The translations under genes were made by a program, and so were the position numbers. Below the pieces are notes generated by a model, which saw only the letters and a list, made by a program, of their open reading frames with translations, did not search any database and had not been told where the DNA came from. This document shows, piece by piece, positions 1 to 64,000 of a DNA stretch of 64,000 nucleotides. Numbering within the stretch: the first letter of the stretch is position 1; the number at the start of each line of letters is the position of its first letter. This stretch comes from a virus. The stretch covers positions 1 through 64,000 of IMG/VR virus record IMGVR_UViG_3300022723_000177. One strand, given 5' to 3'.

Positions 1-180
1 CCCCCGCCCCTGCCCCGCCCCCGCCTCACCCTGGCCCTGGCCCCGCTCCTGCCTCACCCTGGCCCTGCCCCCGCCCCTGCCCTGCCCCGCCCCTGCCTCA
101 CCCTGCCTCACCCGGGCCCTGCACCGCCCTGGGCTCTGTGGGCCCCGCCCCTCTGGTAGCCGTGCGGGCCCTCGCGGGCG
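1..180. repeat. C-rich low-complexity repeat tract (units such as cccctgccccgcccc and ctcaccctggccctg); the complementary strand carries many G3-G5 runs with G-quadruplex potential
   Basis: Direct reading. cccctgccccgcccc recurs at about 1, 77 and again at 1025-1040. No convincing ORF. Confidence 0.6.
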
Positions 181-195
181 CGTGCAGGCGAAACT

Positions 196-220
196 TTTGT
201 TGGCACCCCCTGCCAACAAA
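196..220. promoter_or_regulatory. Perfect 10-bp inverted repeat with a 5-nt loop (tttgttggca ccccc tgccaacaaa); operator or terminator-like hairpin
   Basis: Reverse complement of tttgttggca equals tgccaacaaa. It sits in the non-coding left region. Confidence 0.5.
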
Positions 221-477
221 TGTTGCACCTCAGTGCCAAGTGTCGAACCCACAGGCATCCCGGCGGCAGCTACCACCCTAACCCCCTGATACATAAAGAC
301 TTTCTAGCGTTCCGCTGGCACTACACCCACCGAAACCGGACGGTTTTGGATCGGCAACTAGGCCGCACAAGCCCCTGAATTTACTAATCTTTTTCAACGC
401 ACAGCCCTAGGCTCTCTGCCCACGGGGGCTCGATCGTTCTGCGCACCCCCTGCCGCCGAACCCCACCCCCTTGGGGA

Positions 478-497
478 CCCGCGGGGTACCCCGCGGG
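478..497. promoter_or_regulatory. 20-bp perfect palindrome cccgcggggtaccccgcggg (candidate operator)
   Basis: Self-complementary 20-mer. A related cccgcgggg copy lies at about 555-565. Confidence 0.5.
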
Positions 498-518
498 GCA
501 TTAATTACCGACCCCTGT

Positions 519-535
519 GCACAATATTTGTGCAT
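519..535. promoter_or_regulatory. AT-rich palindrome TGCACAA-TAT-TTGTGCA (operator or promoter-like) inside the regulatory region
   Basis: 7-bp arms are exact reverse complements. Local AT-rich island in a 68% GC genome. Followed by three TGAAAT direct repeats at about 580-625 spaced about 19 bp apart. Confidence 0.45.
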
Positions 536-728
536 ATTTGAAAAACTCGGGATTCCCGCGGGGCCCCAATTCCAGAATCCTGAAATTCCTGCTCGAGTGA
601 AATTATCGATTTCGCTGAAATAGGCGACACAGAAGTGTGTAACTGGTCGGGCACCGCGCGGCGAGGTATGCTGCGCGCTCACTGCCGGCGCAGGGGCCGG
701 TCCAACTACCCTCGAGAGGAATACGCTC

Positions 729-5280: not shown

Positions 5281-5825
5281 ATCTCGACATCGTCGACCCG
5301 GAGGCCCGACGTGTCTACGTGGATGAGCTGCTATTCAAGGTAGGTCCACACGGGCAGTCGATCACCCACCGAGCGATCCTGTCGTTGGCGAAGACCCCCG
5401 AACCGATCGAGATCTGGGTCTCGAGCCTCGGCGGAGATGTAACCGTCGCGTTCGCGCTTTATGACTTGATCCGGGTGATCCCCAATCACGTGACGACCGT
5501 CTACTCAGGCATGGTCGCCAGCGCCGCCTGTGTGATCGCGGTGGCGGGGGATGAGCGGCTAGTCATGCCGAACGCGTCGATGCTCTGGCACCACTGTACG
5601 ACCGAGCTCGAGGGCTCTCCTGTGCAGCTACTCCACGATGCTGCGCAGGTAGAGGAGATCGCCAAGCGGTATGCGAAGATCATGGCGCGCCACTCGTCCA
5701 AGACGGCTAGGTTCTGGGAGAAGCTCTACGAGGACCACCAGGACCACATCTTCAACGCCGAAGAGATCGTGAGCCTTGGGTGCGGGGACCGGATTCTGAA
5801 GCCGCGAAGGAAGAAGAACGCGTGA
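5247..5825 (+). CDS. ClpP-like (S14 family) serine protease
   Basis: IWVSSLGGDV...YSGMVASAACVIA...MLWHH matches ClpP motifs (GxxAS nucleophile, His region). Start at the internal ATG at 5247, overlapping the upstream nuclease by 34 nt. Confidence 0.7.
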   Translation: MAEEYEHGPAVDLDIVDPEARRVYVDELLFKVGPHGQSITHRAILSLAKTPEPIEIWVSSLGGDVTVAFALYDLIRVIPNHVTTVYSGMVASAACVIAVAGDERLVMPNASMLWHHCTTELEGSPVQLLHDAAQVEEIAKRYAKIMARHSSKTARFWEKLYEDHQDHIFNAEEIVSLGCGDRILKPRRKKNA

Positions 5826-6418: not shown

Positions 6419-8029
6419 ATGAACCCTCAACAGCTCCCCGAGAAGTTTCTGGACTTCGAGTGGTTCGCGAACCGGTTCTTCTCCATTCGCGATCGGTCTG
6501 CGAATCTGATCCCGTTCGCGATGAACCCGCTCCAGAAAACTCTCTACCCAAACCTAAACGGCCACGACGACGTGCTGAAGGCGCGGAAGGGAGGGGTGTC
6601 GACGCTCATCGATCTGCTGGCACTCCACCGCGCGCTAACGCGCATGAATCAAAACTGCCTGATCGTGGCCCACCGGAAGGATTCCGCCCTGGAACTCTTC
6701 CGCATCGTGCGTACTGCGTACGACCATCTACCCGACCAGCTCCGCCCCCGCCTCAAGGTCGACACCAGGACCGAGCTCGAGTTCGCCGGCATCGGTAGCC
6801 GCATCTCAGTACAGACCGCGCGCACCAGCGACATCGGTCGTGCGTCTACCATCGACTTCCTTCATTGCTCTGAGATCGCGTTCTGGGACGAGCCCCAAAA
6901 GATCATGGCCGCAGCGGGCGCTGCACTCGGCGATGGCTCGGAGGTGTACCGAGAGTCGACGCCGAACGGCGCGGGTAACTACTGGCACACGGAGTGGATC
7001 AAGGGAAAGGCGCGCCAGTCCGGCTATCAACCGCACTTCTTTGATTGGCGCGTTGAACCGTCCTACCGAATCCGCGAGGCCAACGCGTTGCGGGACCCAG
7101 AGGAGTTCCATCCCGACGGGACCCCGAAGTTCCAGCGCGACGCAGACCGAGAGTTCGTGTTCAATGAGGAGGAGCGGGCTCTCGAGCTCGATCCGCACCA
7201 GGCTCGGTGGCGGCGGCGCAAGAAGAAGGAGCACGGTGACCTGTTCAAGCAGGAGTACCCCGAGGACGACATCACCTGCTTCATCACCTCAGGCGCGAAT
7301 TTCTTCGACATCGCGTTGGTGCAGAAGCAGTACGATGCGCTCGCGACCTTCATGCGTCAGGGCACGCTACTGAAGCGCGAGGAGCCTGCGCTCGGGATGA
7401 AGATCTGGCACAGCTTCAGTGACAAAGACTGGATGCATTGTGAGTTCGTGATCGGCGCAGACACCTCGGAGGGGCTGGTTGGCGACGGGGATGAGGACCA
7501 CGGCGATTTCTCGGCCGCGACGATTCTTGAGAAGCGGACCGGTCTGCAGGTGGCCACCATGCATGGTCTGTGGGAGCCCTACGAGTTCGCCCACGTTCTG
7601 GCCAAGGCGGGGACGCTCTTCGCTACGCCGGCGGGCGGAGCGGCCCTCCTCGGGGTAGAGCGCAACGAGTACGGCCACGCGGTATTGAACGAGCTCCTAC
7701 GTCACATCAAGTACCCGAATCTCTACTACCACACCGACTTCGACGAGCAGCGCGGGCGCCACATCCGCAAACTCGGTTGGCGGACGAATGCCGGGACCCG
7801 GCCGCTCATGCTCGGAGACCTCCAGAAGGCCCTTGGGAAGGGGTACTTCCGGCCGCGCGACCCAGAGTTCCTAGCTGAGTGCATGCAGTTCGTTCGAAAA
7901 CGGAACGGTCGTCCCGAAGCCCAGCAAGGATGTTTCGACGACCGAGTGATCAGCGCGGCGATCGCCTGGCAGATGCGCCAGACCTATTCAAGCGTCCCCC
8001 TCGTGGGCACGAACATAGACGTAGGGTAG
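6419..8029 (+). CDS. terL: Terminase large subunit
   Basis: ATPase motifs (LKARKGGVST Walker-A-like, HCSEIAFWDE Walker B, STPNG). C-terminal nuclease-like region. 536 aa. Position ahead of the portal gene. Confidence 0.9.
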   Translation: MNPQQLPEKFLDFEWFANRFFSIRDRSANLIPFAMNPLQKTLYPNLNGHDDVLKARKGGVSTLIDLLALHRALTRMNQNCLIVAHRKDSALELFRIVRTAYDHLPDQLRPRLKVDTRTELEFAGIGSRISVQTARTSDIGRASTIDFLHCSEIAFWDEPQKIMAAAGAALGDGSEVYRESTPNGAGNYWHTEWIKGKARQSGYQPHFFDWRVEPSYRIREANALRDPEEFHPDGTPKFQRDADREFVFNEEERALELDPHQARWRRRKKKEHGDLFKQEYPEDDITCFITSGANFFDIALVQKQYDALATFMRQGTLLKREEPALGMKIWHSFSDKDWMHCEFVIGADTSEGLVGDGDEDHGDFSAATILEKRTGLQVATMHGLWEPYEFAHVLAKAGTLFATPAGGAALLGVERNEYGHAVLNELLRHIKYPNLYYHTDFDEQRGRHIRKLGWRTNAGTRPLMLGDLQKALGKGYFRPRDPEFLAECMQFVRKRNGRPEAQQGCFDDRVISAAIAWQMRQTYSSVPLVGTNIDVG

Positions 8030-8053: not shown

Positions 8054-9895
8054 ATGGCTCGCATGCCCACCCTTTCGCTCACCTCGGCCTCGCGCCGGCT
8101 CCGCCGGACGAAGGAAGGTCCCGGAGCGATCTTCGACATCACCGAGCGCCGCCACATGCGGTTCAATCTCTACGAGGAGCACTGGCGCTTCCTCTACGAG
8201 AGCTACATCGGTGGACCCGAGTACGTCTACAAGGGCTTCGAACAGGTTGGCGCCAACGCGCGCGGGATCTTCGATCTGAACCGCCGCAACCTCTTCCAGT
8301 TCCACCGCGAGAGCTCGAGCGAGTACCGCGAGCGCTTGCTCCGCGCACATCGGAACAACTACACCAAGAAGGTCGTGGACCAGATGCGCTCGTTCATCGC
8401 GCGCAAGCCGCCCGAACGGAAGACTGACGGCGTACCTACGCCCATCGCGGAGTTCTGGAAGAACAGCGATGGTCGACACCGAAACATCGACCGAACCATG
8501 ATGCTCGTGCTCCAGTGGATGCTGGTGTTCGGGGTGATCTGGATCCAGATCGACAAACCAGATCGCACCTTTCTCAATTTCGAGGACGAGCTTCGCGAAG
8601 GCGTACCCTTCATGAAGTTCCACATGCCGTTCGATGTACTAGACGGGGGTTTCGATGACCTAGGTGAGCCGCGCTGGGTCCTCACACGAGAGCTTGTGCG
8701 GCAGGACGAAGACCCGATGCAAGGGACTCCCGTCGAGACGATCTTCACTCTCTGGGAACCCAATCAGATGCGGAAGTTCGTGAAGCAGAACGTAACGCGC
8801 GAGGATCCGCGTCCGTTCGTGCAGGTAGGAGAGACCGTCTTTCACGACCTCGGCAGGGTGCCGTTTCGCGCCGTGCGCTTCACAGAGAGCGAGGACCCGT
8901 TCGTTACCGCCGGAATGGTGGATGACATCGCCTCGGTCGATCGCGACATCTTCAACAAGCAGTCTCAGCTGGACACGATCATCCTCGACCAGGTGTTCTC
9001 GCAGCTCGTGATCCCCGCAGACGCTGTACTCATGAACACGCCGGATCGCGCGGAGATGAACGGCGCCTCTGTCCGTGCGAACCGCGAGATCGCCCGTGAG
9101 CGTCTCATCGAGATGAGCACCAAGCGCGCGTTCTTGTTCAACGGGAATACCGCGCATCCGCCGCGCTTCATTTCGCCCGACGCAGAACAGGCGGGGACGC
9201 TGCGCGAGGAGATTTCCGGCCTCATCGACGAGGTCTACCGCATGGCCGGCCTGTCTGGAATGGTGGGGCGTGAGGTGAAGACGCAGAGCGGCGTGTCGAA
9301 GGCCTATGACTTCGATCGCATGAACAAGATCATGACGTTCGCCGCGCAGGAGCTGCAGAACGCAGATGAGTGGGCTGCCGAGGTAGTGCTCGAGTGGATG
9401 CGACCTGAAGAACAGCCCGCGTTCCAGCAACGCAAGCGCATCACGAACGACTTTGTCCAGTACCCGGACAACTTCGACATCATGGGGCTGCTCGAAAGCC
9501 TGGACATCGCGTTCCGCACAGATGAGTACAATCTGCATTCGCCGACCGCGTCTGCGCGGATCCGAAAGAAGCTGCTGGTGAAGATGTTCCCCGAGGCCAC
9601 CGAGGATGAACTCGAAGAGATGGTGGCGGAGATCGACCAGGTGCTCGAGCGCGAAAAGAAGATGCAAAAGGACGGACCGCTGGGAACGGCTGGCCTGCTC
9701 CAGCAGTCCGAAGAGGAGCTCGAGCGCATCGCGAACGGGGACTCTCAGGAACCGGCGGTGGGCAACGCCCGCCGAGGGCGAAACGTGAACCTCTCAGAGG
9801 TTCGCGGGCAGGGCGGAGGAGCGCGCGGCCCCGGCCGCGGCGAGCCGACTAGGCCGACCACCCAGCAGGCCCGGCAAGCCGGAGACTCTACCTAG
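8054..9895 (+). CDS. Portal protein (putative)
   Basis: 613-aa ORF directly after terL, with the size and acidic C-terminus typical of portal proteins. No motif-level confirmation is possible by eye. Confidence 0.65.
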   Translation: MARMPTLSLTSASRRLRRTKEGPGAIFDITERRHMRFNLYEEHWRFLYESYIGGPEYVYKGFEQVGANARGIFDLNRRNLFQFHRESSSEYRERLLRAHRNNYTKKVVDQMRSFIARKPPERKTDGVPTPIAEFWKNSDGRHRNIDRTMMLVLQWMLVFGVIWIQIDKPDRTFLNFEDELREGVPFMKFHMPFDVLDGGFDDLGEPRWVLTRELVRQDEDPMQGTPVETIFTLWEPNQMRKFVKQNVTREDPRPFVQVGETVFHDLGRVPFRAVRFTESEDPFVTAGMVDDIASVDRDIFNKQSQLDTIILDQVFSQLVIPADAVLMNTPDRAEMNGASVRANREIARERLIEMSTKRAFLFNGNTAHPPRFISPDAEQAGTLREEISGLIDEVYRMAGLSGMVGREVKTQSGVSKAYDFDRMNKIMTFAAQELQNADEWAAEVVLEWMRPEEQPAFQQRKRITNDFVQYPDNFDIMGLLESLDIAFRTDEYNLHSPTASARIRKKLLVKMFPEATEDELEEMVAEIDQVLEREKKMQKDGPLGTAGLLQQSEEELERIANGDSQEPAVGNARRGRNVNLSEVRGQGGGARGPGRGEPTRPTTQQARQAGDST

Positions 9896-9971
9896 GAGTT
9901 GCCGGCCGGGTTCCTCGGGGGTACACTGCGCACTACCAGCGCATGGCGTGCCGGGGAAACGGAGAAGACGG

Positions 9972-10838
9972 ATGTCCGAAGAGAACAAGAACAAGAACGG
10001 CGGCGAAGGTGATGAGAGCGGCGAGAACAAGCCCAGCCAGGTTCAGATGACCCAGGAGCAGATCGAAGAGCTGATCAACAAGGCCTACGCGCGCGGCGCG
10101 AAGAACTCCCGGGAGGGCAAGGAAGCCCGCGAGACCGCAGAGCGCCTCGAGAAGATGGAAGCCGACAAGGCCAAGGTCGAGGCAGAGCTCGAGGAGCTGA
10201 AGAAGCGCGCCGCCCAGGGCGGCGCAGGCGGCGGCGCAGGCGGCGGCGCAGGCGGCGGCGCAGGCGGCGGCGCAGGCGGCGGCGACGGAGCTGGTAGCCC
10301 CGAGGTCACTCAGCTCCAGGACCAGATCGAGACCCTCAAGAAGAACTACAACGACCGCATCGAGACCCTGACCGGAGAGATCGCGTCCGAGCGGAAGGAA
10401 AAGGAAGCCCGAGACCTGAGGCTGATCCTGAGTGACCTGAAGGGCTCGGCGATCGCAGCGGCAACAAAGGGCGGAGCTGCAGACCCCGAGGATGTGTTCA
10501 TCCTGATGAACTCCAGGGGGCTGTTCAAGATCGACGAGGACACAGGTCGGTGGCACGTTACGGGCCCCGACGGCAAGGTAGTCCTCGATGTCGAGGCGGG
10601 TGGCGACCCGATGGCCTTGGAGAAGGGCATCGAACGCTGGATGGACCAGAACCCGCGAGTGAAGCGGGGGACGGGGCGCACGGGCGGAGGCCCGGGTGGT
10701 GGTGAGGGAGGTTCCCACACCGAAGTGCCTATCGGAGGAGACAAGACCCTGAACCTGGACGGCGCATCGCCGTCTCAGATCTTCGCGAACAAGGATGCGA
10801 TCCTGGCGAAGATCAAGTCGGGCGGTCTCCAGCGCTAG
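9972..10838 (+). CDS. Scaffolding protein (coiled-coil, with a (GGAGGG)5 linker)
   Basis: Charged coiled-coil-type sequence between portal and capsid genes. ATG at 9972 with ggag RBS. Internal tandem DNA repeat at 10216-10277. Confidence 0.6.
   Translation: MSEENKNKNGGEGDESGENKPSQVQMTQEQIEELINKAYARGAKNSREGKEARETAERLEKMEADKAKVEAELEELKKRAAQGGAGGGAGGGAGGGAGGGAGGGDGAGSPEVTQLQDQIETLKKNYNDRIETLTGEIASERKEKEARDLRLILSDLKGSAIAAATKGGAADPEDVFILMNSRGLFKIDEDTGRWHVTGPDGKVVLDVEAGGDPMALEKGIERWMDQNPRVKRGTGRTGGGPGGGEGGSHTEVPIGGDKTLNLDGASPSQIFANKDAILAKIKSGGLQR
10216..10277 (+). repeat. Tandem 12-bp repeat (ggcggcgcaggc) x5 encoding a (GGAG)n flexible linker inside the scaffold gene
   Basis: Direct reading of the sequence. 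Confidence 0.8.
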
Positions 10839-14073: not shown

Positions 14074-14507
14074 TGGCGGAGTTCCGCGTCGAGCTCATCG
14101 GCGGCGATCAGGTGCTGCGGCGCCTCGAGCGCTACCGGAAGAAGGTGACCACCCAGACGGTGCCCGTCACGCTGAACGCGGGCGCTCTGGCGATCCTCGA
14201 GGCCTCGATCAACCTGGCTCCGGTGCTCACTGGCGACCTCATCCGGAGCGCCCGGATCGCACGACCGAAGCCCGCCCCCGGGGCGACAAGCCGAATCATC
14301 TCCTACGGCGTGGACTACGCCGAGAAGCAGCACGAGGACACCTCTCTCAACCCAGGGCCGGTCACCCGCGAGAAGCCGGCTACGGTCGACGGGCCGCCTG
14401 GGCCGAAGTACCTCGAGCGTCCGTTCCGTCGGCTAGCGCCGGAGATCCGGAAGCGCCTGGCCGCCGAGACCAAACGCGACGCCCGTGTAGCCGGGCAAGG
14501 GTCCTAG
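14073..14507 (+). CDS. HK97 gp10-like head-tail joining protein (putative)
   Basis: Size and position. ATGA coupling to the upstream ORF. Confidence 0.45.
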   Translation: MAEFRVELIGGDQVLRRLERYRKKVTTQTVPVTLNAGALAILEASINLAPVLTGDLIRSARIARPKPAPGATSRIISYGVDYAEKQHEDTSLNPGPVTREKPATVDGPPGPKYLERPFRRLAPEIRKRLAAETKRDARVAGQGS

Positions 14508-14963: not shown

Positions 14964-16061
14964 ATGGGTTCCATCGAGACTCGTCCCAGCCAGAATGCGA
15001 TGACCTCGAACAATGTCCAGATCGGACAACCGTTCGTGGAGATCGGCCTGAAGACAGGCACCAACACCTTCGACGCGTACCGCACGCTCGGCATCCTCAG
15101 TTCATCGGCCATCGCCAAAGAGATCGAGACCGTTGCGCTGCGGAGTTCGCACAGCGGTACCAGCGTTCTGGTCCGCGAGCTCGTGCGCCAGTTCGAAGCT
15201 CGGCTCAACGTCGAGACCTTCGAGTGGTCTGCTGAGAACATGCAGCTTGCGTTTGCTTCTGCGACCAGCACGCCCATCAGTGCCGCGGTCACCCCGGTCG
15301 TGGACGAAGAGGTGTTCCTCTCCGGCGACACGGCGACGTGGGCGGACCTCGCGAACCCGAACGTGCTGGAGTCTCCCTCGTTCGTCGCCACCTGCGCGAC
15401 GATCACGGACGAAGAGGTCGGGACCGGTGACGGAACGAGCGGTAGCTCCCTGGGCGACTTCTCTCTGGACTTCAAGCCCCTCGACACCGTGACCGACGTA
15501 GCCAGCGTCTCCGTAGGGGGCGTAGCGTTCACGCCCATCGCGGTGGGCGCCGCGTCTTCGGGCAATGAGGTCGAGATCGAAGACTACGGGGACGACACCA
15601 CGAACGCCGGCCGGATGCAGTTCTTCGTCGCAGGCGTTGCTGCGGATGTGACTGGGGCGATTCTGGCAACCTACACCCCTGGCCACACGCTGACAGAGAA
15701 CACGACCTACGCCGTGGACTACCAGGATGGTCGGATTCGGGCGCTGCTCCTCGGTGCGACCGATGTGCTGAAGCCCAACCAGCCACTCTTCGTAGACTAC
15801 AGCTACAACGCGTTCGATGGCGTCGACCTCAGCCCGTACACCCAGTTCGTGTTCGAGGCCCGCGCCCGGGTGCGGCTGCTCACGGACGTCGGCATCAACA
15901 TCGTCTGGCCGATCCCTTCCGTGAACGTACGGCTGACGGACGACGACGTGGAGTTCGCGGACGACGACTTCGGGTCGCTCGCGCTCTCGGTAACACTGAT
16001 CGACGACGGCTCGGCCACGCCCTACGGCACCATGAGCGTCTACGAAGAGGACGCCGCGTAG
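14964..16061 (+). CDS. Major tail protein (putative, with Ig-like C-terminal region)
   Basis: 365 aa, Thr/Ser/Val-rich and beta-rich. Located just upstream of the G/GT chaperone and tape measure genes. Confidence 0.6.
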   Translation: MGSIETRPSQNAMTSNNVQIGQPFVEIGLKTGTNTFDAYRTLGILSSSAIAKEIETVALRSSHSGTSVLVRELVRQFEARLNVETFEWSAENMQLAFASATSTPISAAVTPVVDEEVFLSGDTATWADLANPNVLESPSFVATCATITDEEVGTGDGTSGSSLGDFSLDFKPLDTVTDVASVSVGGVAFTPIAVGAASSGNEVEIEDYGDDTTNAGRMQFFVAGVAADVTGAILATYTPGHTLTENTTYAVDYQDGRIRALLLGATDVLKPNQPLFVDYSYNAFDGVDLSPYTQFVFEARARVRLLTDVGINIVWPIPSVNVRLTDDDVEFADDDFGSLALSVTLIDDGSATPYGTMSVYEEDAA

Positions 16062-30081: not shown

Positions 30082-30617
30082 GCCACAGCTTCGCATTCCA
30101 CGCGGCGCTCGACTTCTCCCTGAAGTGGGAGGGCGGCTACGTGAATCACCCGAACGATCCGGGCGGCGAGACCAAGTACGGAATCTCCAAGCGCGCCCAT
30201 CCCGACGTCGACATCGCCGCGCTCACGAAGCAGCAGGCGGCCGACATCTACCACAAGAAGTACTGGACGAAGATCCGCGGCGACGAGCTCCCTCGAGGCG
30301 TTTCCATGGCGGTCTTCGACTACGCGATCCACGGCGGTGTGTCGCGCGCCATCCGAGGTCTCCAGCGGGCCGTCGGGGGCGTCGCGGTCGATGGGCAGCT
30401 CGGGCCCATCACGCTGGGGGCCGCCCGGCAGGCCGTACACGACCTAGGCAACGCGGAGCTTGCGTACCGGGTCGTCGACCGCCGGGTGGCCCACCTCGCC
30501 GGCCTCGTGCGCCGCGCACCCGAGCGCTACGGCGTGTTCCTGCACGGCTGGCTTCGCCGCACCCACGATCTCGTGCGCGAGCTCGCCAGCACCCCTGAAT
30601 TCAACACGGGGACCTAA
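30078..30617 (+). CDS. Endolysin: glycoside hydrolase family 108 lysozyme with C-terminal peptidoglycan-binding domain
   Basis: FSLKWEGGYVNHPNDPGGETKYGI is the GH108 N-terminal signature. The C-terminal region resembles PG_binding_3. Confidence 0.85.
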   Translation: MSHSFAFHAALDFSLKWEGGYVNHPNDPGGETKYGISKRAHPDVDIAALTKQQAADIYHKKYWTKIRGDELPRGVSMAVFDYAIHGGVSRAIRGLQRAVGGVAVDGQLGPITLGAARQAVHDLGNAELAYRVVDRRVAHLAGLVRRAPERYGVFLHGWLRRTHDLVRELASTPEFNTGT

Positions 30618-30621
30618 GAGG

Positions 30622-31524
30622 ATGCACGCCCTTGTACTCAGCGGCGGGGGAGCGCTGGGTGCCTGGAGCGCCGGCGCGGCCTCCGAGATCGTCCGCTTCT
30701 TCGCCACCACCCACGAACCGATCGCGCTCATCTCCGGGACCTCCGTCGGCGCGGCCAACGCGGCGAAGCTGGTCCAGGACGGGCCCGACCCGCTACTCGA
30801 GCTCTGGCGCAACGTCACCCGCAGGGACGTCTACGTGCGAGGTGCCGCGGGCCCACTGACCTCGGCCTACCGGCTCCTGCGGGGGCGCCCTCTCTACGAC
30901 ACCCGGCCCCTCGCCGCACTGCTCGGTCGCGAGCTCAGCGCGGCCAAGATCGCGGCCTCTCGCTGTGAGCTTCGCGTCCACGCAGCCGATCTAGGCTCCA
31001 GGGCTCTGGTGACCTGGACCGGGCGCTCTCCGGGCCTCCTGGAGGCAATCCGCGGATCCATGGCGATCCCTGGGTTGTTCCCGCCGGTGAGGGTGGGCGG
31101 CCTGGCCCTGGTCGACGGTGGGGTCGTGGCCAACGCCCCGATCGGTCCGGCGATCCGCGCGGGGGCGACGCGCGTGACAGTCCTGCACCCGGACAACGAG
31201 GTGGTGGTGCCCCCGAGGGAGGCCGAGGAGCTGCTGCGGCCGAAGAGCGTCACGCCGGCCTGGCTGTGGGATCGCTCGGCACTTCGCACTTTGAAGCGCT
31301 CGCTCGAGATCATGTTGACCGGCCACATGGAGCGGGACATCCGGATGACGCGCATGGCGAATCAGCTCGACAGCTACCGGACGGTGCGGCTCGACGTGAT
31401 CTCGCCCCCGACCGCACTCGACCCAGACGGCGGAGCACTACTGGACTTCCGGCGCGAGGTTCTCGACGCCCTGCTCGAGCGCGGGATCCGTGACGGCCGG
31501 CGATGGATCCGGAGGCGCGCCTAG
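30622..31524 (+). CDS. Patatin-like phospholipase
   Basis: LVLSGGGALGAWSAG (oxyanion hole), GTSVG (GxSxG nucleophile) and a later DGG (catalytic Asp). Start at the internal ATG at 30622, with a GAGG-type RBS upstream and a 1-nt overlap with the endolysin stop. Confidence 0.8.
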   Translation: MHALVLSGGGALGAWSAGAASEIVRFFATTHEPIALISGTSVGAANAAKLVQDGPDPLLELWRNVTRRDVYVRGAAGPLTSAYRLLRGRPLYDTRPLAALLGRELSAAKIAASRCELRVHAADLGSRALVTWTGRSPGLLEAIRGSMAIPGLFPPVRVGGLALVDGGVVANAPIGPAIRAGATRVTVLHPDNEVVVPPREAEELLRPKSVTPAWLWDRSALRTLKRSLEIMLTGHMERDIRMTRMANQLDSYRTVRLDVISPPTALDPDGGALLDFRREVLDALLERGIRDGRRWIRRRA

Positions 31525-36538: not shown

Positions 36539-36988
36539 TGTTCTCTCCCCCTGGTGGGTTCAACGAGGCCTTCGGAGCGGAGCGGTGAGGGATGAACGAC
36601 GGTGCATACTGTATGCGGTGCGTTCGCCGCCTCTCTCCGAAGGCTGATGTATCACAATGCAAGCCGCGAGCCAAGTGCAAAGTGCCACGAGACCGCGCAC
36701 AGCGGCTTCCCAGTTCTGGCGCCACTGGAACCGGTGACGAGGCGTGTCACTAGGTGCCGCAAAATGCGGCTCTGCCACATTAGCTCCGTCCGAGGCCGGC
36801 CCCGGACGGTTCGGACCCGTCGAGTGATTCTGGTCCCTCAGGCTCCTGAGGGGTTGGGCTTTCCATGGCGCTGTAAGCCACCCACACCTCTCTGCGAGAA
36901 ACGCGCCCGGTCCAGTTGCAATCGGGACACCCTTGGGTGGTGGCTCCACAGCCCGCGCACGCTACTACCCGCCAACGGACGAGCCGCC

Positions 36989-38675: not shown

Positions 38676-38705
38676 TTGCTATTTTGGCACGAGGGTTGCT
38701 ATATC
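38676..38705 (+). promoter_or_regulatory. Sigma-70-like promoter candidate (TTGCTA - 18 nt - TATATC) for the rightward replication operon
   Basis: Hexamers read directly, about 50 bp upstream of the ATG at 38753. Confidence 0.35.
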
Positions 38706-57917: not shown

Positions 57918-57955
57918 GAGGCTCCGCCCCATCGGTGGAGCCTCTTTTCGTTTCG
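57918..57955 (+). terminator. Rho-independent terminator (gaggctcc-12 nt-ggagcctc followed by ttttcgtttcg)
   Basis: 8-bp perfect stem plus T-rich tail, directly downstream of the 57863 stop. Confidence 0.6.
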
Positions 57956-58043: not shown

Positions 58044-58626
58044 GAATCGTGCGTTGCGAGCACAACGAGCTGACGATGAGATCTCATTTTTGCGGCAGCC
58101 CGTGGCGAAGTGACGCACAGTCACCCTAGATGCCCAGTGCCAAGTGCCTAAGAAATAGGCACCGTGGCCAGTGTGCGCGGCCGGCGCGGACGGGCGAGGT
58201 GGGGGTGCCAACTTTGGCTGCACCCCTGAGCGCCCCGCGGGCGGCGCATACATTAGATCTGAGCCATCCACTCGGGGCTTGAAAGAGGAGAGCAAAATCA
58301 CCCGTGGGGGGTACCTCAGGGGAGGTATTGCACCTGCGGGGGCAGTTGGGGTGAGGTCAGTGATGCGTGGGGGCTTGGCACGGGGCCGGCGAGGGCCCTC
58401 ACTATCCAGCTAACCATATCCAGTACGCAACAGGAGACCCCTAGGTAGCGCGAGCTCCCCGTAGTTATATTCCTCTTTTCTTCTTCTTCAAGAGACAGAG
58501 GTACTCTATGGACGGACGGCGCTCGCTCTAGGTCGCTCTCTTGGCAAGGTGGATTGTGGATATCTGGAGAGCCTTGTGAAGAGCTCCCACCCTAGGTTAA
58601 TCTAGGCCGCGACCAGAGGAGACCCG

Positions 58627-59390: not shown

Positions 59391-61562
59391 TTGGGTAGCG
59401 CCGTTCAGATCAACGCACAGATTCCCACCACCGAAGACGAGTTCGATCAGATGGTCTTCGAGCCGCTGTACAAGCTTTCGAAGCGCGGCACCGTCCTGGT
59501 AGGCAACGACACTGAGACGACTAAGATCACACCTGCCCGCGGGTTCAACCCGTTCTATGGCCCGCGTATTGCGATGATCCAGTACTCGTGGAACGACGGA
59601 CCGGTCCCCTACGACGCCGCAGTGTGTCTACGCATGAAGCCCGGACTTGTGCGACTTCCCGAGCGCCCCGACACGAAGGCGAAGAACAAGCAGCTCCGTG
59701 CAGAGTGGCGAGAGGCCCACAAACAGTGGGTCGAGACCGGCGATGTCTCTGTGTGGCCGGAGTGGTGCGACCTCGAGGTCGAGCGCCCGTCCAACGTAGA
59801 CCCCGAGCATGTGATCCGGCGCATGAACGAGCTCACCGACGAGGGGCTCGTCTACGTCTACAAGAACATGATGTTCGACCTGCAGTTTCTCTGGATCGAC
59901 GGGTTCGTGATCCCGAAGATCGAGCAGCTGGAAGAGGTCGAGATTCAGAGCCACCTAACCGAGGACAAGCCCTGGCACAAAGGCAGGCGCGTGTCCCACC
60001 ACTTGGCGAGCCTTGCCGAGCGGCACCTGAACCGGGAAGCGGTGGGGGAAGGAAGGCTGGATCAATGGTTCAGCGACATGAAGGTCAAGAACGACTCCAA
60101 GGACTATTCCGCGGTTCCGTACGCTTCAATCCTTGGGCCATACGGATGCCACGACACCCGTGACACGCTCGACCTCTTTCACTTCTTCCAAGGCAAGCTC
60201 GACAAGCACGATGAGCAGAGCGCGCCGGGCCGCACGCTGCGCTGGCTTTACGAGGACGAGAAGCTCATCGCTCGCAACCTGGTCGAGAAGACGATGATCC
60301 CCGGGTTCGGTGTAGACCAAGGGACGGCCGACGAGCTCCTGGTGAAGCACGAGACCTCTCGAGACGAGATGGCCAGCACGCTCTACCAGATGACCGGCCG
60401 ACAGATCGACTGGAGTGGCGGTACCAACGAGCTCGCGAGCTACCTGTTCGACCCACCGGCAGAGGGGGGCCTCGGACTGGCTGTGCCGGAGTTCGGATGG
60501 ACGGATTCCGGAGAGCGCTCGGTGTCTCACAAGGTGCTCGAGGAGCTCGACACGCCGCTGACAGCGAAGATTCTTGAGTGGCGGACGTCGAACACGTTCA
60601 TCAACTCGTTCCTGGAGCCGATCGCGCGCTTCAACATCGAAGGCTTCATCCACCCGAACTTCCGTCTGGTGGCCGTGCGCACGGGGCGCCTGTCGTGCTC
60701 ACACCCGAACATGCAGAACCGACCCAAGGACAAGGATGTACGGTCGATGTTCGTGCCGCGCAAGGGCTACGTGCTGCTCGACGCGGACTACGACCAAGTA
60801 GAGATGCGGATCGCCGCCCACTACGCCTACCAAGTCTGCACGAAGGTGCCGACGGTTTGGTACAAGGCATGGGGGCGGAACCGGAAGAGCGTGGCGCCGG
60901 ATCGCAACGGGCTGTGGGAGGGCTTCGTCAACGACCCGGACTTCGACCCGCACCAGATCATGGCCGACCTCAGCGGGCTACCTCGCTCGAGGGAGCACGC
61001 CGGCCAGACGACATGCAAGGAAGTGAACTTCGGGATCCTCTATGGATCTGGCATTCGCGGAATGTGCAAGAACTATGGGTGGGAGCAGCGCAAGGCCAAG
61101 GACGTTCGCTCGTGGTTCTATAAGGCGTACCCCGAGATCGCACACCTGAAGGCGTTCATCGAGAAGCAGCTCGCGGACCGCGGGTGGATCGCGAACGAGT
61201 TCGGCCGCCGCTACTACATCGACAAGATGTACTTGGCGCTGAACTACCTGATCCAAGGCTGCGCCGGTGACCTCATCAAGCGCGCCAAGAACAAGCTATA
61301 CCTACTCGAGGACCAGCTCCGGGAGGAGTATGAGGGAGCCCACCCATTCCGGATCATCAACACCGTCCACGATGAGGTCGTGACGGAGGTCCGCGAGGAT
61401 CTGCTCGACGCGAAGTTTGTGAGTCGTGTAGACGCCGAGATGACCACATGGAAGAGGTATGACGGCTCGGACCTGTTCTGCGTTCCGATCACAGCCGGCT
61501 ACGCTGTGAGTGCCAGCAACTGGGGCGACCTCGAAGACTACGAGTGGAAGGAAGCGGCATGA
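59391..61562 (+). CDS. polA: DNA polymerase I family (family A) with 3'-5' exonuclease domain
   Basis: Motif A RLSCSHPNMQNRP, motif B KEVNFGILYGSG, motif C NTVHDEVV. An N-terminal exonuclease-like region is present. TTG start at 59391. Confidence 0.9.
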   Translation: MGSAVQINAQIPTTEDEFDQMVFEPLYKLSKRGTVLVGNDTETTKITPARGFNPFYGPRIAMIQYSWNDGPVPYDAAVCLRMKPGLVRLPERPDTKAKNKQLRAEWREAHKQWVETGDVSVWPEWCDLEVERPSNVDPEHVIRRMNELTDEGLVYVYKNMMFDLQFLWIDGFVIPKIEQLEEVEIQSHLTEDKPWHKGRRVSHHLASLAERHLNREAVGEGRLDQWFSDMKVKNDSKDYSAVPYASILGPYGCHDTRDTLDLFHFFQGKLDKHDEQSAPGRTLRWLYEDEKLIARNLVEKTMIPGFGVDQGTADELLVKHETSRDEMASTLYQMTGRQIDWSGGTNELASYLFDPPAEGGLGLAVPEFGWTDSGERSVSHKVLEELDTPLTAKILEWRTSNTFINSFLEPIARFNIEGFIHPNFRLVAVRTGRLSCSHPNMQNRPKDKDVRSMFVPRKGYVLLDADYDQVEMRIAAHYAYQVCTKVPTVWYKAWGRNRKSVAPDRNGLWEGFVNDPDFDPHQIMADLSGLPRSREHAGQTTCKEVNFGILYGSGIRGMCKNYGWEQRKAKDVRSWFYKAYPEIAHLKAFIEKQLADRGWIANEFGRRYYIDKMYLALNYLIQGCAGDLIKRAKNKLYLLEDQLREEYEGAHPFRIINTVHDEVVTEVREDLLDAKFVSRVDAEMTTWKRYDGSDLFCVPITAGYAVSASNWGDLEDYEWKEAA

Positions 61563-61741
61563 GCGCACGGCTGATGGTGAAGGTGTCTGCGATCGAGGTG
61601 GATCGGGCGATGAGGCGCACGGGCTCCCATGACTACGACATGGAGATCGACCTGAGCGACTGGCCGACCTTCGACGTTCCGGCCGACCTACTCAGACTCA
61701 AGGAGCACATCGAGGAGTACCTGGAGACAAGCTACTCGTGA
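61544..61741 (+). CDS. Small hypothetical protein (65 aa)
   Basis: Overlap-coupled to the polymerase gene. Confidence 0.4.
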   Translation: MEGSGMSARLMVKVSAIEVDRAMRRTGSHDYDMEIDLSDWPTFDVPADLLRLKEHIEEYLETSYS

Positions 61742-62244
61742 ACGAGGACACGCTCAAGAGCAAGTGGTGCCGCTACGCCAAGCGGGAGGGGTTCGCAACA
61801 AAGCGACTCGGTCCGCACCAAATCCCCGGACTCCCCGATCTTATTGCCATGGACCGGGGTCTCGAGCTCGAGACCAAATCGAAGCGTCGCGGGAGGTGCC
61901 ACTGGGTCGAGGCCAAGGTGGCGAAGCCGGTGAAGCGCTCGGGCTCGAATGTGTTCTCGGCGGATCGAGATGCTACCACGAAGCAGATCGAGTGGTTGGC
62001 GTTGTTCGCTGCTCTGGGTATCCCTTCGTGGTGGCTCGTTCTGTCAGAGGACTGCTGGGCCTTGGTGCCGGGTACGCAGATGACCCTCACCAAGGCAAAG
62101 TGGGATCAGCTGAAGCGTCCCTACAAGGGTGATGTCTACGAGCTCATGGACTCGACGACGCAGAACGCGGAGCAGCGCAAGCTCGCAGTCGCTGAGACCG
62201 ACGCTACGATGGAGGCTTGGGAACAGGAGCGCCTCAATGCCTAG
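61738..62244 (+). CDS. VRR-NUC domain nuclease (PD-(D/E)XK)
   Basis: GLPDLIAMDRG...ELETKSK matches D...E.K. 168 aa. Confidence 0.7.
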   Translation: MNEDTLKSKWCRYAKREGFATKRLGPHQIPGLPDLIAMDRGLELETKSKRRGRCHWVEAKVAKPVKRSGSNVFSADRDATTKQIEWLALFAALGIPSWWLVLSEDCWALVPGTQMTLTKAKWDQLKRPYKGDVYELMDSTTQNAEQRKLAVAETDATMEAWEQERLNA

Positions 62245-62956
62245 AGACACAGAGATCTACGGTGATGCGCAGTTCGCTACCGCTCACCCCGTGAAGGGTC
62301 CGAACGAGCTCTCGATTTCCACGCATGAATACCAGCTCGTGGTGCGCCTACTCGCCGAAAACTGGAAGATGCCGCAGGTGGTAGACGAAGTCGCCCGACA
62401 GTTCCCCGCTTCGGCGTGCTCTTACGGGGTGGTGCGCCGCATTAAGTCCACGCGACAACCCGAGATCAAGGCGCTCCGCGAGAAGATCAACAAACAGCTC
62501 GACGATCTATGGATCGCCAACAAACGCCAACGAGTGATCACGTTGCAGCGGATGTTCGAGGACGCGAACCGCTGGACCCCCGTGAAAGCGATTGAGACCA
62601 TCGAGAACGACGAAGCGGGGGACCCTGCGCGCCGTACGAGCCTTGTCTACAAGAAGGACTTCGGCGCGATGATCTCTGTGATCAAGGCTGTGCGGGAGGA
62701 GCTCGGAGAAGATGCAGGAGCCCGCGCAGCGACGTCGCTCGAGGATCTGGTGCGCCTAGCAGAGCAGAGCCGAGGTCTCGAGACCACCCACGAGAAGGGT
62801 GACAACCTCGAGGGCGCTGTGCCTGTGCAGGAAGACGCCATGCTGATCGACGTCCCTGCCCAGTACCGTACGCGCGGCAGTGATGATACCCGCGGCTTCA
62901 TCGATGGTGCAGAGGTGATCGACCAAGAAGACGAGGCCGGCGCCGACGTCGTCTAG
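62237..62956 (+). CDS. Hypothetical acidic protein with N-terminal HTH-like region
   Basis: ATG at 62237. HEYQLVVRLLAENWKMPQVVDEVARQF is helix-turn-helix-like. Confidence 0.5.
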   Translation: MPRDTEIYGDAQFATAHPVKGPNELSISTHEYQLVVRLLAENWKMPQVVDEVARQFPASACSYGVVRRIKSTRQPEIKALREKINKQLDDLWIANKRQRVITLQRMFEDANRWTPVKAIETIENDEAGDPARRTSLVYKKDFGAMISVIKAVREELGEDAGARAATSLEDLVRLAEQSRGLETTHEKGDNLEGAVPVQEDAMLIDVPAQYRTRGSDDTRGFIDGAEVIDQEDEAGADVV

Positions 62957-63035
62957 AGAAGCACCCCCACCCCCCAAGAAAAAGCACCCCCACCTTCCAG
63001 AGCACCCCCTGCTCTACCGCGGCTCACCTCACATT

Positions 63036-63165
63036 TTCGAGCTAACGATGAACTTTCGTTTTCGCTAACGATGAGTTTTCGTTTTTGTGGCACCCCGCGC
63101 GGTCGTGGTGTTTCAGTATTCCTGGAACGATCGATTTCAGTATTCCTGCAACGATCAACCGGCAA
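63036..63165. repeat. Two pairs of about 24-bp tandem direct repeats (gctaacgatgaNNtttcgtttt x2; tttcagtattcctgNaacgatcNa x2); iteron-like
   Basis: Direct reading. Preceded by three agcaccccc copies at 62961-63010. The non-coding block spans 62957-63352. Confidence 0.6.
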
Positions 63166-63352
63166 CTCGTGCGCATGTGCAACTCCACGGAAGTGGACCG
63201 GCAGGTCGGCACTGGTGACGCCGTAGGTTGTCACTCTGCGCGCTAGTTACGCGCCGAAACACCCCTAGACCGCGTCTGCGTGCTTGGCACGTGGTTCGCA
63301 TTGCTTCCGGAGCATGCGCCGAAATTCAATCGGCCGAAAGGGGATATACGAA

Positions 63353-63847
63353 ATGAGTACCCGATGCAGCATTTTTGTTTACGACCGGAATGGGCAACCT
63401 ACCGCGCAGCTGTACCACCACTGCGATGGGTACCCCGCGAATATGCTGGATCTGATAGGTACGGCCTACCGGAAGGCGCGCAAGGCGGGCCGCGCCGGCC
63501 ATGAGTGGGCCGCAAGCTTTCTCTGCGCGACCGACCCCGCGCAATTCTGCGTTGAGCCGATCGACGCGCGGTACGGGGACCTAGCGTACACCTATCACGT
63601 CCACCCCTACACACACGATACTGGCTCCGAGGTCTGGCGCGTGGAAGTGAAGGACGGAACCGGCGGGACCGGAGGGGAGCCCATGGTCGCCCTGTACTAT
63701 CACCCGAAAGCGGTAGGGATTGAGGGTCTCGGAGAAGGGGTACTGGACACTGACGCTATTCCCAACGCCCGCGGCGCCACACCCTTCGGGGTTCGACAGC
63801 GGCGCATCGCGAGATACGGTGTGGAAGTGGCCGACCGAAAAATCTGA
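63353..63847 (+). CDS. Hypothetical protein (164 aa)
   Basis: ATG at 63353 with atacgaaATG context. First gene after the repeat block. Confidence 0.45.
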   Translation: MSTRCSIFVYDRNGQPTAQLYHHCDGYPANMLDLIGTAYRKARKAGRAGHEWAASFLCATDPAQFCVEPIDARYGDLAYTYHVHPYTHDTGSEVWRVEVKDGTGGTGGEPMVALYYHPKAVGIEGLGEGVLDTDAIPNARGATPFGVRQRRIARYGVEVADRKI

Positions 63848-63925
63848 TTCAGGATGCGATTTTCCTCTCAAGGGTTTCGGCGCACCTACCGATAAGTAGA
63901 TCATATCAGCAAGGGGGAGCGACAA

Positions 63926-64000
63926 TGGTTCGAGCAGCTTTCATGATCGGCGCAGCGAGCGTGTTTCTCTACAGCCTTCTGCAGGTTGCTAACGCAGCGG
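63926..64000 (+). CDS. Partial ORF (5' end only) encoding a hydrophobic N-terminus
   Basis: agcaagggggagcgacaATG RBS, then MVRAAFMIGAASVFLYSLLQVANAA. Runs off the window. Confidence 0.35.

Follow-up and report, generated by a model that had tools for sequence, protein, structure and literature searches.

The DNA considered here comprises positions 1 to 64,000 of the IMG/VR virus record IMGVR_UViG_3300022723_000177, which comes from a tailed phage; this whole stretch of 64,000 nucleotides (nt), with 63% G+C, is called the window in the following. Close to its end, at positions 62957-63352, a block of intergenic DNA extends from the stop codon (62954-62956) of the last gene of an operon containing the DNA polymerase gene PolA to the ATG at 63353 of the next gene. 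The block is composed of several classes of motifs, termed A, B, C, D and F, and of a sigma-54-type promoter signature. In the order of their positions the features are:

62237-62956, plus strand: last gene of the PolA block, 239 amino acids (aa); a start at GTG 62129 would give 275 aa
62957-63040, plus strand: class A, a C-rich tract of 84 nt (C 48%, G 13%) that begins at the stop codon
63040-63088, plus strand: class B, a tandem pair of an asymmetric element of 26 bp with a 23-bp offset
63111-63156, plus strand: class C, a tandem pair of TTTCAGTATTCCTGsAACGATC with a 24-bp offset
63161-63186, plus strand: class D, two GCAACT (63162, 63179) flanking TGCGCATGTGCA
63214-63235, no strand: class F, the palindrome GGTGACGCCGTAGGTTGTCAC with GTGAC at 63215-63219 and GTCAC at 63230-63234
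63285-63300, plus strand: sigma-54-type promoter TGGCACGTGGTTCGCA with the −24 GG at 63286-63287 and the −12 GC at 63298-63299
63336-63355, plus strand: ribosome-binding site GAAAGGGGA, an 8-nt spacer and the ATG at 63353
63353-63847, plus strand: first gene downstream of the block, 164 aa

Direct reading as well as repeat finders locate AGCACCCCC at 62960-62968, 62983-62991 and 63001-63009, and no copy beyond these three exists on either strand of the window. Since shuffled sequences yield 0.72 copies per whole window, three copies within 50 bp are far from chance. The first tandem pair (class B) has the unit GCTAACGATGAryTTTCGTTTT at 63041-63062 and 63064-63085 (period 23, 91% identity) and the second (class C) occupies 63111-63132 and 63135-63156 (period 24, 95% identity). 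With up to 3 mismatches allowed, neither unit matches anywhere else in the window, and 0 of 100 shuffles gave a match. Re-registered, the second pair reads AACGATCGATTTCAGTATTCC and is a diverged copy of the first-pair unit (AACGAT + N3 + TTTC.GT.TT), which results in four AACGAT boxes at 63044, 63067, 63126 and 63150 with the irregular spacings of 23, 59 and 24 bp. With 35% G+C, 63047-63086 ties for the lowest 40-bp stretch of the window, a value reached by only 0.02% of all 40-bp segments; it is modest in absolute terms and shared with three other intergenic regions. The 120-bp G+C minimum within the block ranks second lowest in the window. All seven open reading frames (ORFs) crossing the block have a third-position G+C of 0.48-0.65, compared with 0.72-0.88 in real genes, and the block is non-coding. 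A preliminary description, made from the sequence, had already reported a non-coding block with three agcaccccc copies and two AT-rich tandem pairs. Copies and pairs are confirmed at their coordinates, the AT-richness is borne out for the first pair, and the possibility that the repeats belong to a small overlooked gene finds no support in the codon-position G+C of the ORFs. What had been missed is the 84-nt C-rich, G-poor tract surrounding the agcaccccc copies after the stop codon and, in the last ~150 bp, the sigma-54 −24/−12 promoter with its upstream palindrome.

Relatives of this locus were recovered by means of the 239-aa upstream protein and PolA homologues (44-54% identical) as metagenomic contigs of nine further lineages: L003, L005, L007/L010/L011, L009, L012, L013, L014, L015 and L016. 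The gene order PolA, ~50 aa, ~168 aa, ~240 aa is kept in 10 of 10 lineages, and in all ten the ~240-aa gene is followed by a non-coding gap of 250-780 bp. Past the gap the genes vary by lineage (the 164-aa gene, DUF932 or small ORFs). Because the order upstream is kept and the genes downstream differ, the gap is a conserved feature of the module boundary. The gaps are not alignable end to end; they contain the same motif classes in a fixed order. Visual inspection and simple pattern counts served to define classes C, D and F, and formal background tests were confined to class B and to the sigma-54 and sigma-28 patterns. Since the motifs are conserved in relatives whose PolA is only 46-54% identical, the repeats are regarded as functional, and a cis-acting role of the block is supported.

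The family consensus of class B is aTCTAACGAyGgnTTTTCrTTTTcG(yGGC), its core form CTAACGAyGnnnTTTTCrTTTTcG, and each of the two tandem copies in the window includes AACGA-N7-TCGTT. In a leave-one-lineage-out test with a weight matrix built from the relatives only, these copies rank first and second of ~128,000 positions (29.0 and 27.9 bits), and the gap copies are also the top sites in L005, L009, L010, L012, L014, L015 and L016. With the exception of L003, each lineage (9 of 10) has the element, mostly in two copies spaced by 21-47 bp. It is always found on the plus strand, in the 16 curated gap sites as well as in four dispersed copies. It lies 0-115 bp past the homologous stop codon and ~150-700 bp away from the downstream promoter; its position is tied to the end of the upstream gene and not to that promoter, and lineages with a sigma-28-like downstream promoter (L014, L016) have it too. 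One of the dispersed copies belongs to the window:

58068-58093, plus strand: third, single class B copy AGCTGACGATGAGATCTCATTTTTGC (22.9 bits, third-best site of the window)

This copy is located in a 760-bp gap upstream of the PolA block, 114 bp past an intrinsic terminator at 57918-57954 (11-bp stem, tail TTTTCGTTTC) which ends the preceding gene block, and it is followed by the palindrome GTGACGCACAGTCAC, another class F copy, at 58109-58125. This gap at 58 kb has a motif set in common with the block, namely class B, class F and a GCACCCC palindrome, and C5-loop hairpins together with a class C-like motif recur in window 1-728. Single extra class B copies on the plus strand exist also in other intergenic regions of L005 (3315), L014 (5789) and L015 (4676), and the tandem arrangement itself is unique in the window. 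Motifs shared in this way across intergenic regions fit regulatory signals better than a unique origin or packaging (pac) site. Sites for IHF, CtrA, LexA, ParB/KorB, DnaA and Spo0A were considered for class B and set aside, as none of their consensus sequences fits. An extracytoplasmic function (ECF)-type promoter (AAC-N16-CGT) was set aside as well; its −10 CG is present in only ~6 of 16 copies.

Class A contains the three AGCACCCCC copies (62960, 62983, 63001), and around the last one a hairpin AGAGCA-CCCCC-TGCTCT with a 6-bp stem and a C5 loop can form at 63000-63016. Just 3′ of the homologous stop codon the core AAGCACCCCCACC is found three times in the window and in L013, twice in L009 and once each in L005, L015 and L003, and the C-rich tract is kept in six other lineages. 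The tract resembles a rut (Rho-loading) site: like lambda tR1 and other Rho-dependent terminators, 62957-63040 is untranslated, longer than 80 nt (rut sites being at least ~70-80 nt), C-rich (48%) and G-poor (13%), and it starts from the last stop codon of the operon. Rut sites need no specific conserved core. The block differs from terminators of the tR1 type in its lineage-conserved core AAGCACCCCCACC and in one copy forming a C5-loop hairpin that recurs at 195-217, and the conserved core suggests something more specific than Rho loading. A G-quadruplex on the minus strand was dismissed as a conserved feature of class A, being possible in the window and L013 and not in L005 and L009. The GCACCCCCTGC C5-loop hairpins of the window lie at 195-217 (9-bp stem), 443-453 and 63000-63016, and the related palindrome GGGGTGCCAACTTTGGCTGCACCCC occupies 58199-58224.

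The class C core CAGTATTC is common to the window and the L003 gap. The latter contains, distributed over both strands, four class C sites with no more than 3 mismatches, and a further repeat copy of 85% identity; L015 shows a looser resemblance, read by eye. The re-registered class C unit at 63122 scores 12.4 bits with the class B matrix, and by this comparison class C is, at the sequence level, a diverged class B unit. A related motif, TTTCAGGATTCT, occurs on the minus strand at 584 of the window and at 9172 of L003. Furthermore, in L003 a minus-strand sigma-28-like promoter (9340-9400) faces the CAGTATTC repeats, which suggests that an antisense or small transcript crosses the repeats in that lineage. 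Class D of the window is a weak form of the GCAACTyG / CGCAGCTTGC arrays of the relatives. The share of GCAACT sites that fall inside the homologous gap is 9 of 12 in L012, 5 of 10 in L009, 4 of 10 in L007 and 2 of 15 in the window.

The last ~150 bp of the block are, judged by their motifs, well supported as a putative sigma-54-type promoter region with palindrome and ribosome-binding site. The element TGGCACGTGGTTCGCA differs from TGGCACG-N4-TTGCW at one position and keeps the exact GG-N10-GC spacing; the predicted transcription start is near 63311, and the promoter site lies 68 nt before ATG 63353. A scan found no sigma-70-like promoter in the block and no intrinsic terminator in 62700-63500. 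At up to 1 mismatch the window contains three sigma-54-like sites, compared with 0.5 expected from mononucleotide shuffles; a second shuffle set gave an expectation of 1.23, and 15 of its 100 shuffles reached three sites. The enrichment taken for itself appears modest, and the case is made by conservation and position. When up to 2 mismatches are allowed, L005 and L010 each have one site in total over both strands, situated on the plus strand of the homologous gap, and the single 1-mismatch site of L009 is found there as well; the site of L013 is weaker (3 mismatches). The other two sites of the window are:

38685-38700, plus strand: perfect match, intergenic, 69 nt before ATG 38754
36673-36658, minus strand: intergenic, upstream of a minus-strand gene

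The ribosome-binding site GAAAGGGG precedes both ATG 38754 and ATG 63353, and the promoter-ATG distances are nearly equal (69 and 68 nt). Because of the perfect site at 38685 and GAAAGGGG, the start of the DUF932 gene was moved from GTG 38558 to ATG 38754. As a separate observation, a GGCACTT heptad (AGTGCC on the plus strand) occurs, within a number of long intergenic stretches, in 2-3 adjacent copies at 231, 1258, 1641-1661, 36672-36692 and 58131-58150; the copies resemble a compressed −24/−12 element (TGGCACTTTGCA), with a spacing that is wrong for sigma-54.

The class F palindrome belongs to the type TGACGC..GCGTCA or TGACGCAA..TTGCGTCA, and GGTGACGCCGTAGGTTGTCAC is centred ~60 bp before the −24 element. 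In all seven aligned sigma-54-like promoters a palindrome of the TGACGCAA..TTGCGTCA type is found 60-90 bp upstream of −24, and this is the usual place of a sigma-54 enhancer. CACTGGTGACGC is common to the window and L016, where the palindrome precedes a sigma-28-like promoter. By type and position, class F is a candidate enhancer (upstream activating sequence, UAS) or operator.

The region has in common with known sigma-54 promoters (glnAp2/NtrC; Pseudomonas phage YuA) the GG-N10-GC spacing, the TGGCACG-N4-TTGC core, the palindrome 60-90 bp upstream of −24 and a short leader to the first gene; the tandem repeats, which lie outside the promoter core, set the block apart. Phage YuA is reported to rely on sigma-54 of its host and to possess, in addition, a conserved promoter motif specific to the phage which is inactive without phage factors; sigma-54 use by phages is described there as rare, with YuA as the cited case (PMC5053324, PMC10914365, citing Ceyssens 2008). 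The phage of the window is similar to YuA in being a ~60-kb phage of 63% G+C with PolA and without an RNA polymerase of its own. However, no sequence relationship was found, neither by megablast nor by PolA, whose best phage match is ~25% identical. Class B resembles the motifs in nine YuA promoter regions (PMC10914365) in being a ~26-bp asymmetric, strand-specific and family-conserved element that is intergenic and sometimes tandem. In contrast to the YuA motifs, class B promoters would have leaders of 150-700 nt, and no phage sigma or polymerase-modifying factor was identified.

Besides the sigma-54-like promoters, sigma-28/FliA-type sites with the consensus TAAAGTTT-N11-GCCGATAA were observed. 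The window has one at 63869-63895 on the plus strand (CAAGGGTTT-N11-ACCGATAAG), and others are located in L003 (10704, 11366 and, on the minus strand, 9378), L014 (9911), L016 (5960, with variants at 5717 and 6348) and L015 (10913). Strict matches number 5 in 172 kb compared with 0.03 expected, all of them on the plus strand and just before a ribosome-binding site. The site of the window precedes a small ORF for a hydrophobic peptide (ATG 63927), and such an ORF also follows the sigma-54-like promoter in L007 and L009.

The phage represents a previously undescribed family. The same sequence exists as a 65,843-bp JGI contig, of which the final ~1.8 kb (64001-65843) lie beyond the window, and an independently assembled Logan contig (53,640 bp) spans window 10255-63894. 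No isolate is close to this phage: megablast of 61500-64000 against 50,697 phage records gave no match, and PolA is only ~25% identical to its best phage matches. A search of IMG/VR for close relatives of either flanking protein found none. A family alignment of the 239-aa protein had no match in IMG/VR or in a collection of 185,579 genomes, and hence no prophage relative there; tblastn of this protein against phages gave no match either, and a tRNA scan of the window found none. Gene blocks and genes referred to in the following are:

6419-8029: TerL
8054-9895: portal
31.7-38.2 kb, minus strand: block of minus-strand genes
following the minus-strand block, plus strand: long block with DUF932, SNF2 helicase, primase-helicase, RNA ligase and PolA
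59391-61562, plus strand: PolA

Some observations outside the block concern the phage as such. A lysozyme-like motif YVNHPNDPGGETKYGI, which we take to be of the GH108 type, is encoded in 30082-31524 and adjoins a patatin-like phospholipase, and Pfam assigns small ORFs of the window to a prepilin N-terminal methylation motif, an RF-1 domain protein and a MazG-like protein. Judging from the lysozyme and prepilin motifs, the host would be a Gram-negative bacterium. Inside the ORF 9948-10838 of the structural region there is a perfect tandem repeat of 12 bp x 5.6 (GGCGGCGCAGGC, 10218-10284), and exactly at this repeat the Logan assembly of the same phage breaks.

The 239-aa protein upstream of the block had been presented in the preliminary description as the product of the last replication-block gene next to polymerase and nuclease genes. 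It is neither a replication nor a nuclease protein and points instead to the DUF2280/phrog_546 proteins with a helix-turn-helix (HTH). Its AlphaFold2 (AF2) model shows an N-terminal three-helix HTH-like domain, a long helix, a beta hairpin and an acidic tail, with residues 25-115 at a predicted local distance difference test (pLDDT) score of 71-93; an earlier AF2 model from 3 sequences (pLDDT 46) was too poor for use. No direct Pfam or NCBIfam assignment was obtained, and the protein matches phrog_546 with E 7e-4. A profile search among 1.8 billion representatives returned proteins of 150-240 aa at E 1e-8 to 1e-3, and of ten distant matches that were scanned four pass the Pfam cut-off for DUF2280 and five match phrog_546. 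In hhalign the family aligns with the phrog_546 protein of Acinetobacter phage Ab11510-phi (80% probability, E 1.4e-5, 88 columns), including a common IANKR.RL..LQ motif. A sequence search of the PDB gave matches at chance level and a structure search was unspecific. Aeromonas phage phiARM81mr has a TerL related to that of the window; its small terminase is unrelated to the 239-aa family, and kinship between the two was rejected. The protein therefore appears to be a distant HTH member of DUF2280/phrog_546 and is, remotely, small-terminase-like. To our knowledge the DUF2280-type family is still without an assigned function. The Ab11510-phi protein and its counterpart in Salinibacter phage 1_25 are encoded directly upstream of TerL and portal, and the same position was described for a DUF2280 protein in an A. 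baumannii prophage (PMC7760358). No small-terminase candidate lies beside the TerL of the window, whose neighbours are an SPFH protein, a ClpP-like protease, an exonuclease, a recombinase and an HNH endonuclease. The adjacent DUF2280-type protein is the best candidate for a binder of the repeats; co-variation between its HTH region and the class B variants was not resolved with ten sequences.

We read the block as a transcription control region at an operon junction, with the repeats serving as protein-binding sites or as signals for transcription, and to this reading we give about an even chance. Transcription of the operon of PolA and the small-terminase-like protein would pass the last stop codon into the C-rich, G-poor untranslated tract of 84 nt, which would be suited to Rho loading, and would then meet the AT- and T-rich region with the two class B and the two class C elements. 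These may be read by a sequence-specific DNA-binding protein or, as a transcription signal, by the RNA polymerase. The class F palindrome, as candidate enhancer or operator, and the sigma-54 promoter would restart transcription 42 nt before the next gene. Host sigma-54 holoenzyme and an enhancer-binding ATPase would use this promoter, with the palindrome as their enhancer; the C-rich tract would terminate or insulate, and the two repeat pairs may be operator, terminator or promoter-type sites. The class B element is asymmetric, restricted to one strand, conserved in the family, tied to the end of a gene and dispersed, and thus a transcription signal or operator fits better than a unique pac site or origin.

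An explanation that the preliminary description had already offered is a packaging site (pac or cos-proximal). In its present form the small-terminase HTH of the 239-aa protein would bind the AACGAT repeats at 63040-63156 and recruit TerL for headful packaging. The link of the protein family to DUF2280/phrog_546 by hhalign, the occurrence of such proteins in the TerS slot of three phages or prophages and the lack of a TerS gene beside TerL give this idea some support, and class B lies within 0-115 bp of the end of the 239-aa gene in 9 of 10 lineages, whatever comes next. The small-terminase sites of lambda (cosB), SPP1 and P1 are short repeats in or beside terminase genes, and the block is like the cosB R sites, SPP1 pacL/pacR and the P1 pac hexamers in having repeated short boxes within AT-rich DNA beside a gene of a TerS-slot family with HTH/coiled coil, boxes and gene being conserved together. 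However, the 239-aa gene forms part of a conserved replication module, separated from TerL by ~9 kb and the assembly junction, and the block lies downstream of this gene. The pac sites known to us lie inside or upstream of terS, not downstream. Moreover, the site is not unique, since class B occurs also at 58068 and in L005, L014 and L015 outside the gap, and L003 has the protein without class B. On balance we consider a packaging site unlikely. Two further observations concern possible genome ends: window 1-130 is a C-rich tandem array (28-bp period, 65% C), and the L009 and L010 contigs, long and independent of each other, end in tandem arrays of 57-59-bp units (14340-14462 and 15290-15558) 3-4 kb past the TerS-like gene. 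An array is thus conserved at the assembly junction; it could mark genome ends or simply break assemblies; the contig ends 3-4 kb downstream probably reflect assembly breaks.

The preliminary description had also proposed a replication origin, for which we found no specific evidence and which we judge to be very unlikely. The repeats would be iterons for a phage initiator, the AT-rich pair would unwind and the nearby promoter would provide transcriptional activation. The block is indeed placed at the end of the replication module behind PolA, includes the (tied) most AT-rich 40 bp of the window and contains several families of direct repeats, class D arrays reaching 9 copies in 340 bp in the relatives, and the adjacent HTH protein could bind an origin instead of being a terminase. 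With 22-24-bp direct repeats, an AT-rich stretch, replication genes and a promoter it is similar to iteron origins (lambda ori, P4 ori/crr, plasmid iterons). It differs from these in having two copies per repeat type and not an array of at least three repeats in like orientation, and in the fixed orientation and the copies at other operon boundaries, which in the case of class B are asymmetric, on one strand and dispersed (as at 58068). Furthermore, no recognisable initiator gene is adjacent, and 62957-63352 contains no DnaA-box-like site, whereas three such sites cluster at 516-545 in a still more AT-rich region. For the AT-rich unwinding element that an origin would need, the 40 bp with 35% G+C would be the candidate, with the ties and the modest absolute level already mentioned. 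The cumulative GC-skew minimum is at 40.5 kb and no inflection is seen at 63 kb beyond the local C-rich tract; a switch of strand composition is weak evidence in phages. Elsewhere in the window, 510-642 contains TGTGCACAATATTTGTGCATATTTGAAAAA with two TGTGCA repeats and the three DnaA-box-like matches of 516-545, 523-642 is the 120-bp stretch of lowest G+C (43%), and 510-642 is more origin-like than the block. Least probable of all appears to be an RNA element in the 3′ untranslated region (UTR) of the PolA operon, with tandem weak hairpins and U-tracts as a factor-dependent terminator or attenuator, or a put/nut-like antitermination signal. The strand-specific orientation just past stop codons, directly after the rut-like tract, would agree with it, as would the T-rich tail TTTTCGTTTT, which is like the U-tract of the true terminator at 57918-57954, and the ability of the two class B copies of the window to pair (−12.7 kcal/mol, centroid). 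But the conserved part is the sequence CTAACGAyG and no pairing pattern, and among eleven class B contexts the hairpin registers differ by lineage and fold energies are no better than shuffles (z +1.5 to −2.6; −2.5 for folding of the whole block). Since no fold is common to these eleven contexts, the RNA-structure reading was downgraded. In addition, 62700-64000 has no match to an Rfam 15 covariance model at E up to 1, the terminator scan of 62700-63500 was negative, and class C occurs on both strands in L003.

Several points weigh against the transcription control region as well. The relatives are related by descent, and conserved order and orientation are thus not independent observations. 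A conserved RNA structure of class B, an intrinsic terminator and an Rfam family are all missing, so that a role in termination is a positional argument. The small-terminase-like nature of the adjacent protein favours packaging, and the first pair, being the most AT-rich spot and adjoining replication genes, keeps the origin under consideration. The motifs of enhancer-binding ATPases (GAFTGA, GESGTGK) are absent from the window and the related loci, and a Pfam scan of 45 small proteins revealed no sigma factor or HTH regulator. As no activator is encoded there, a host activator would be needed. Finally, neither class B nor class C occurs in front of the window's other two sigma-54-like promoters, and they are therefore not a required part of such promoters.

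Sigma-54 and sigma-28/FliA are the pair of factors that runs flagellar gene cascades. It is conceivable, though decidedly speculative and in our view quite unlikely, that in these phages the gene blocks depend on alternative sigma factors of the host, sigma-54 promoters with the conserved enhancer palindrome driving some blocks and sigma-28 promoters others, and that the AACGAT repeats are the recognition array of a displaced DUF2280-type small terminase whose gene closes the replication operon ~9 kb from TerL. Recognition for packaging, termination of the replication operon and restart by sigma-54 would then be united in one junction of 400 bp.

In uncultured phages of about ten metagenomic lineages there appear to be conserved promoters of the sigma-54 type preceded by a palindrome; some of these phages have strict promoters of the sigma-28 type in addition. 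Should this hold true, phage gene expression would depend on enhancer-binding activators of the host and perhaps on its motility programme, which would matter for the host range and for the circumstances that allow an infection to proceed. The conserved, strand-fixed 26-bp element beside the DUF2280-type gene is a candidate DNA site for that protein family. For annotation, the analysis shows that the long, seemingly empty gaps of such phages contain signals in ordered arrays and not missed genes.

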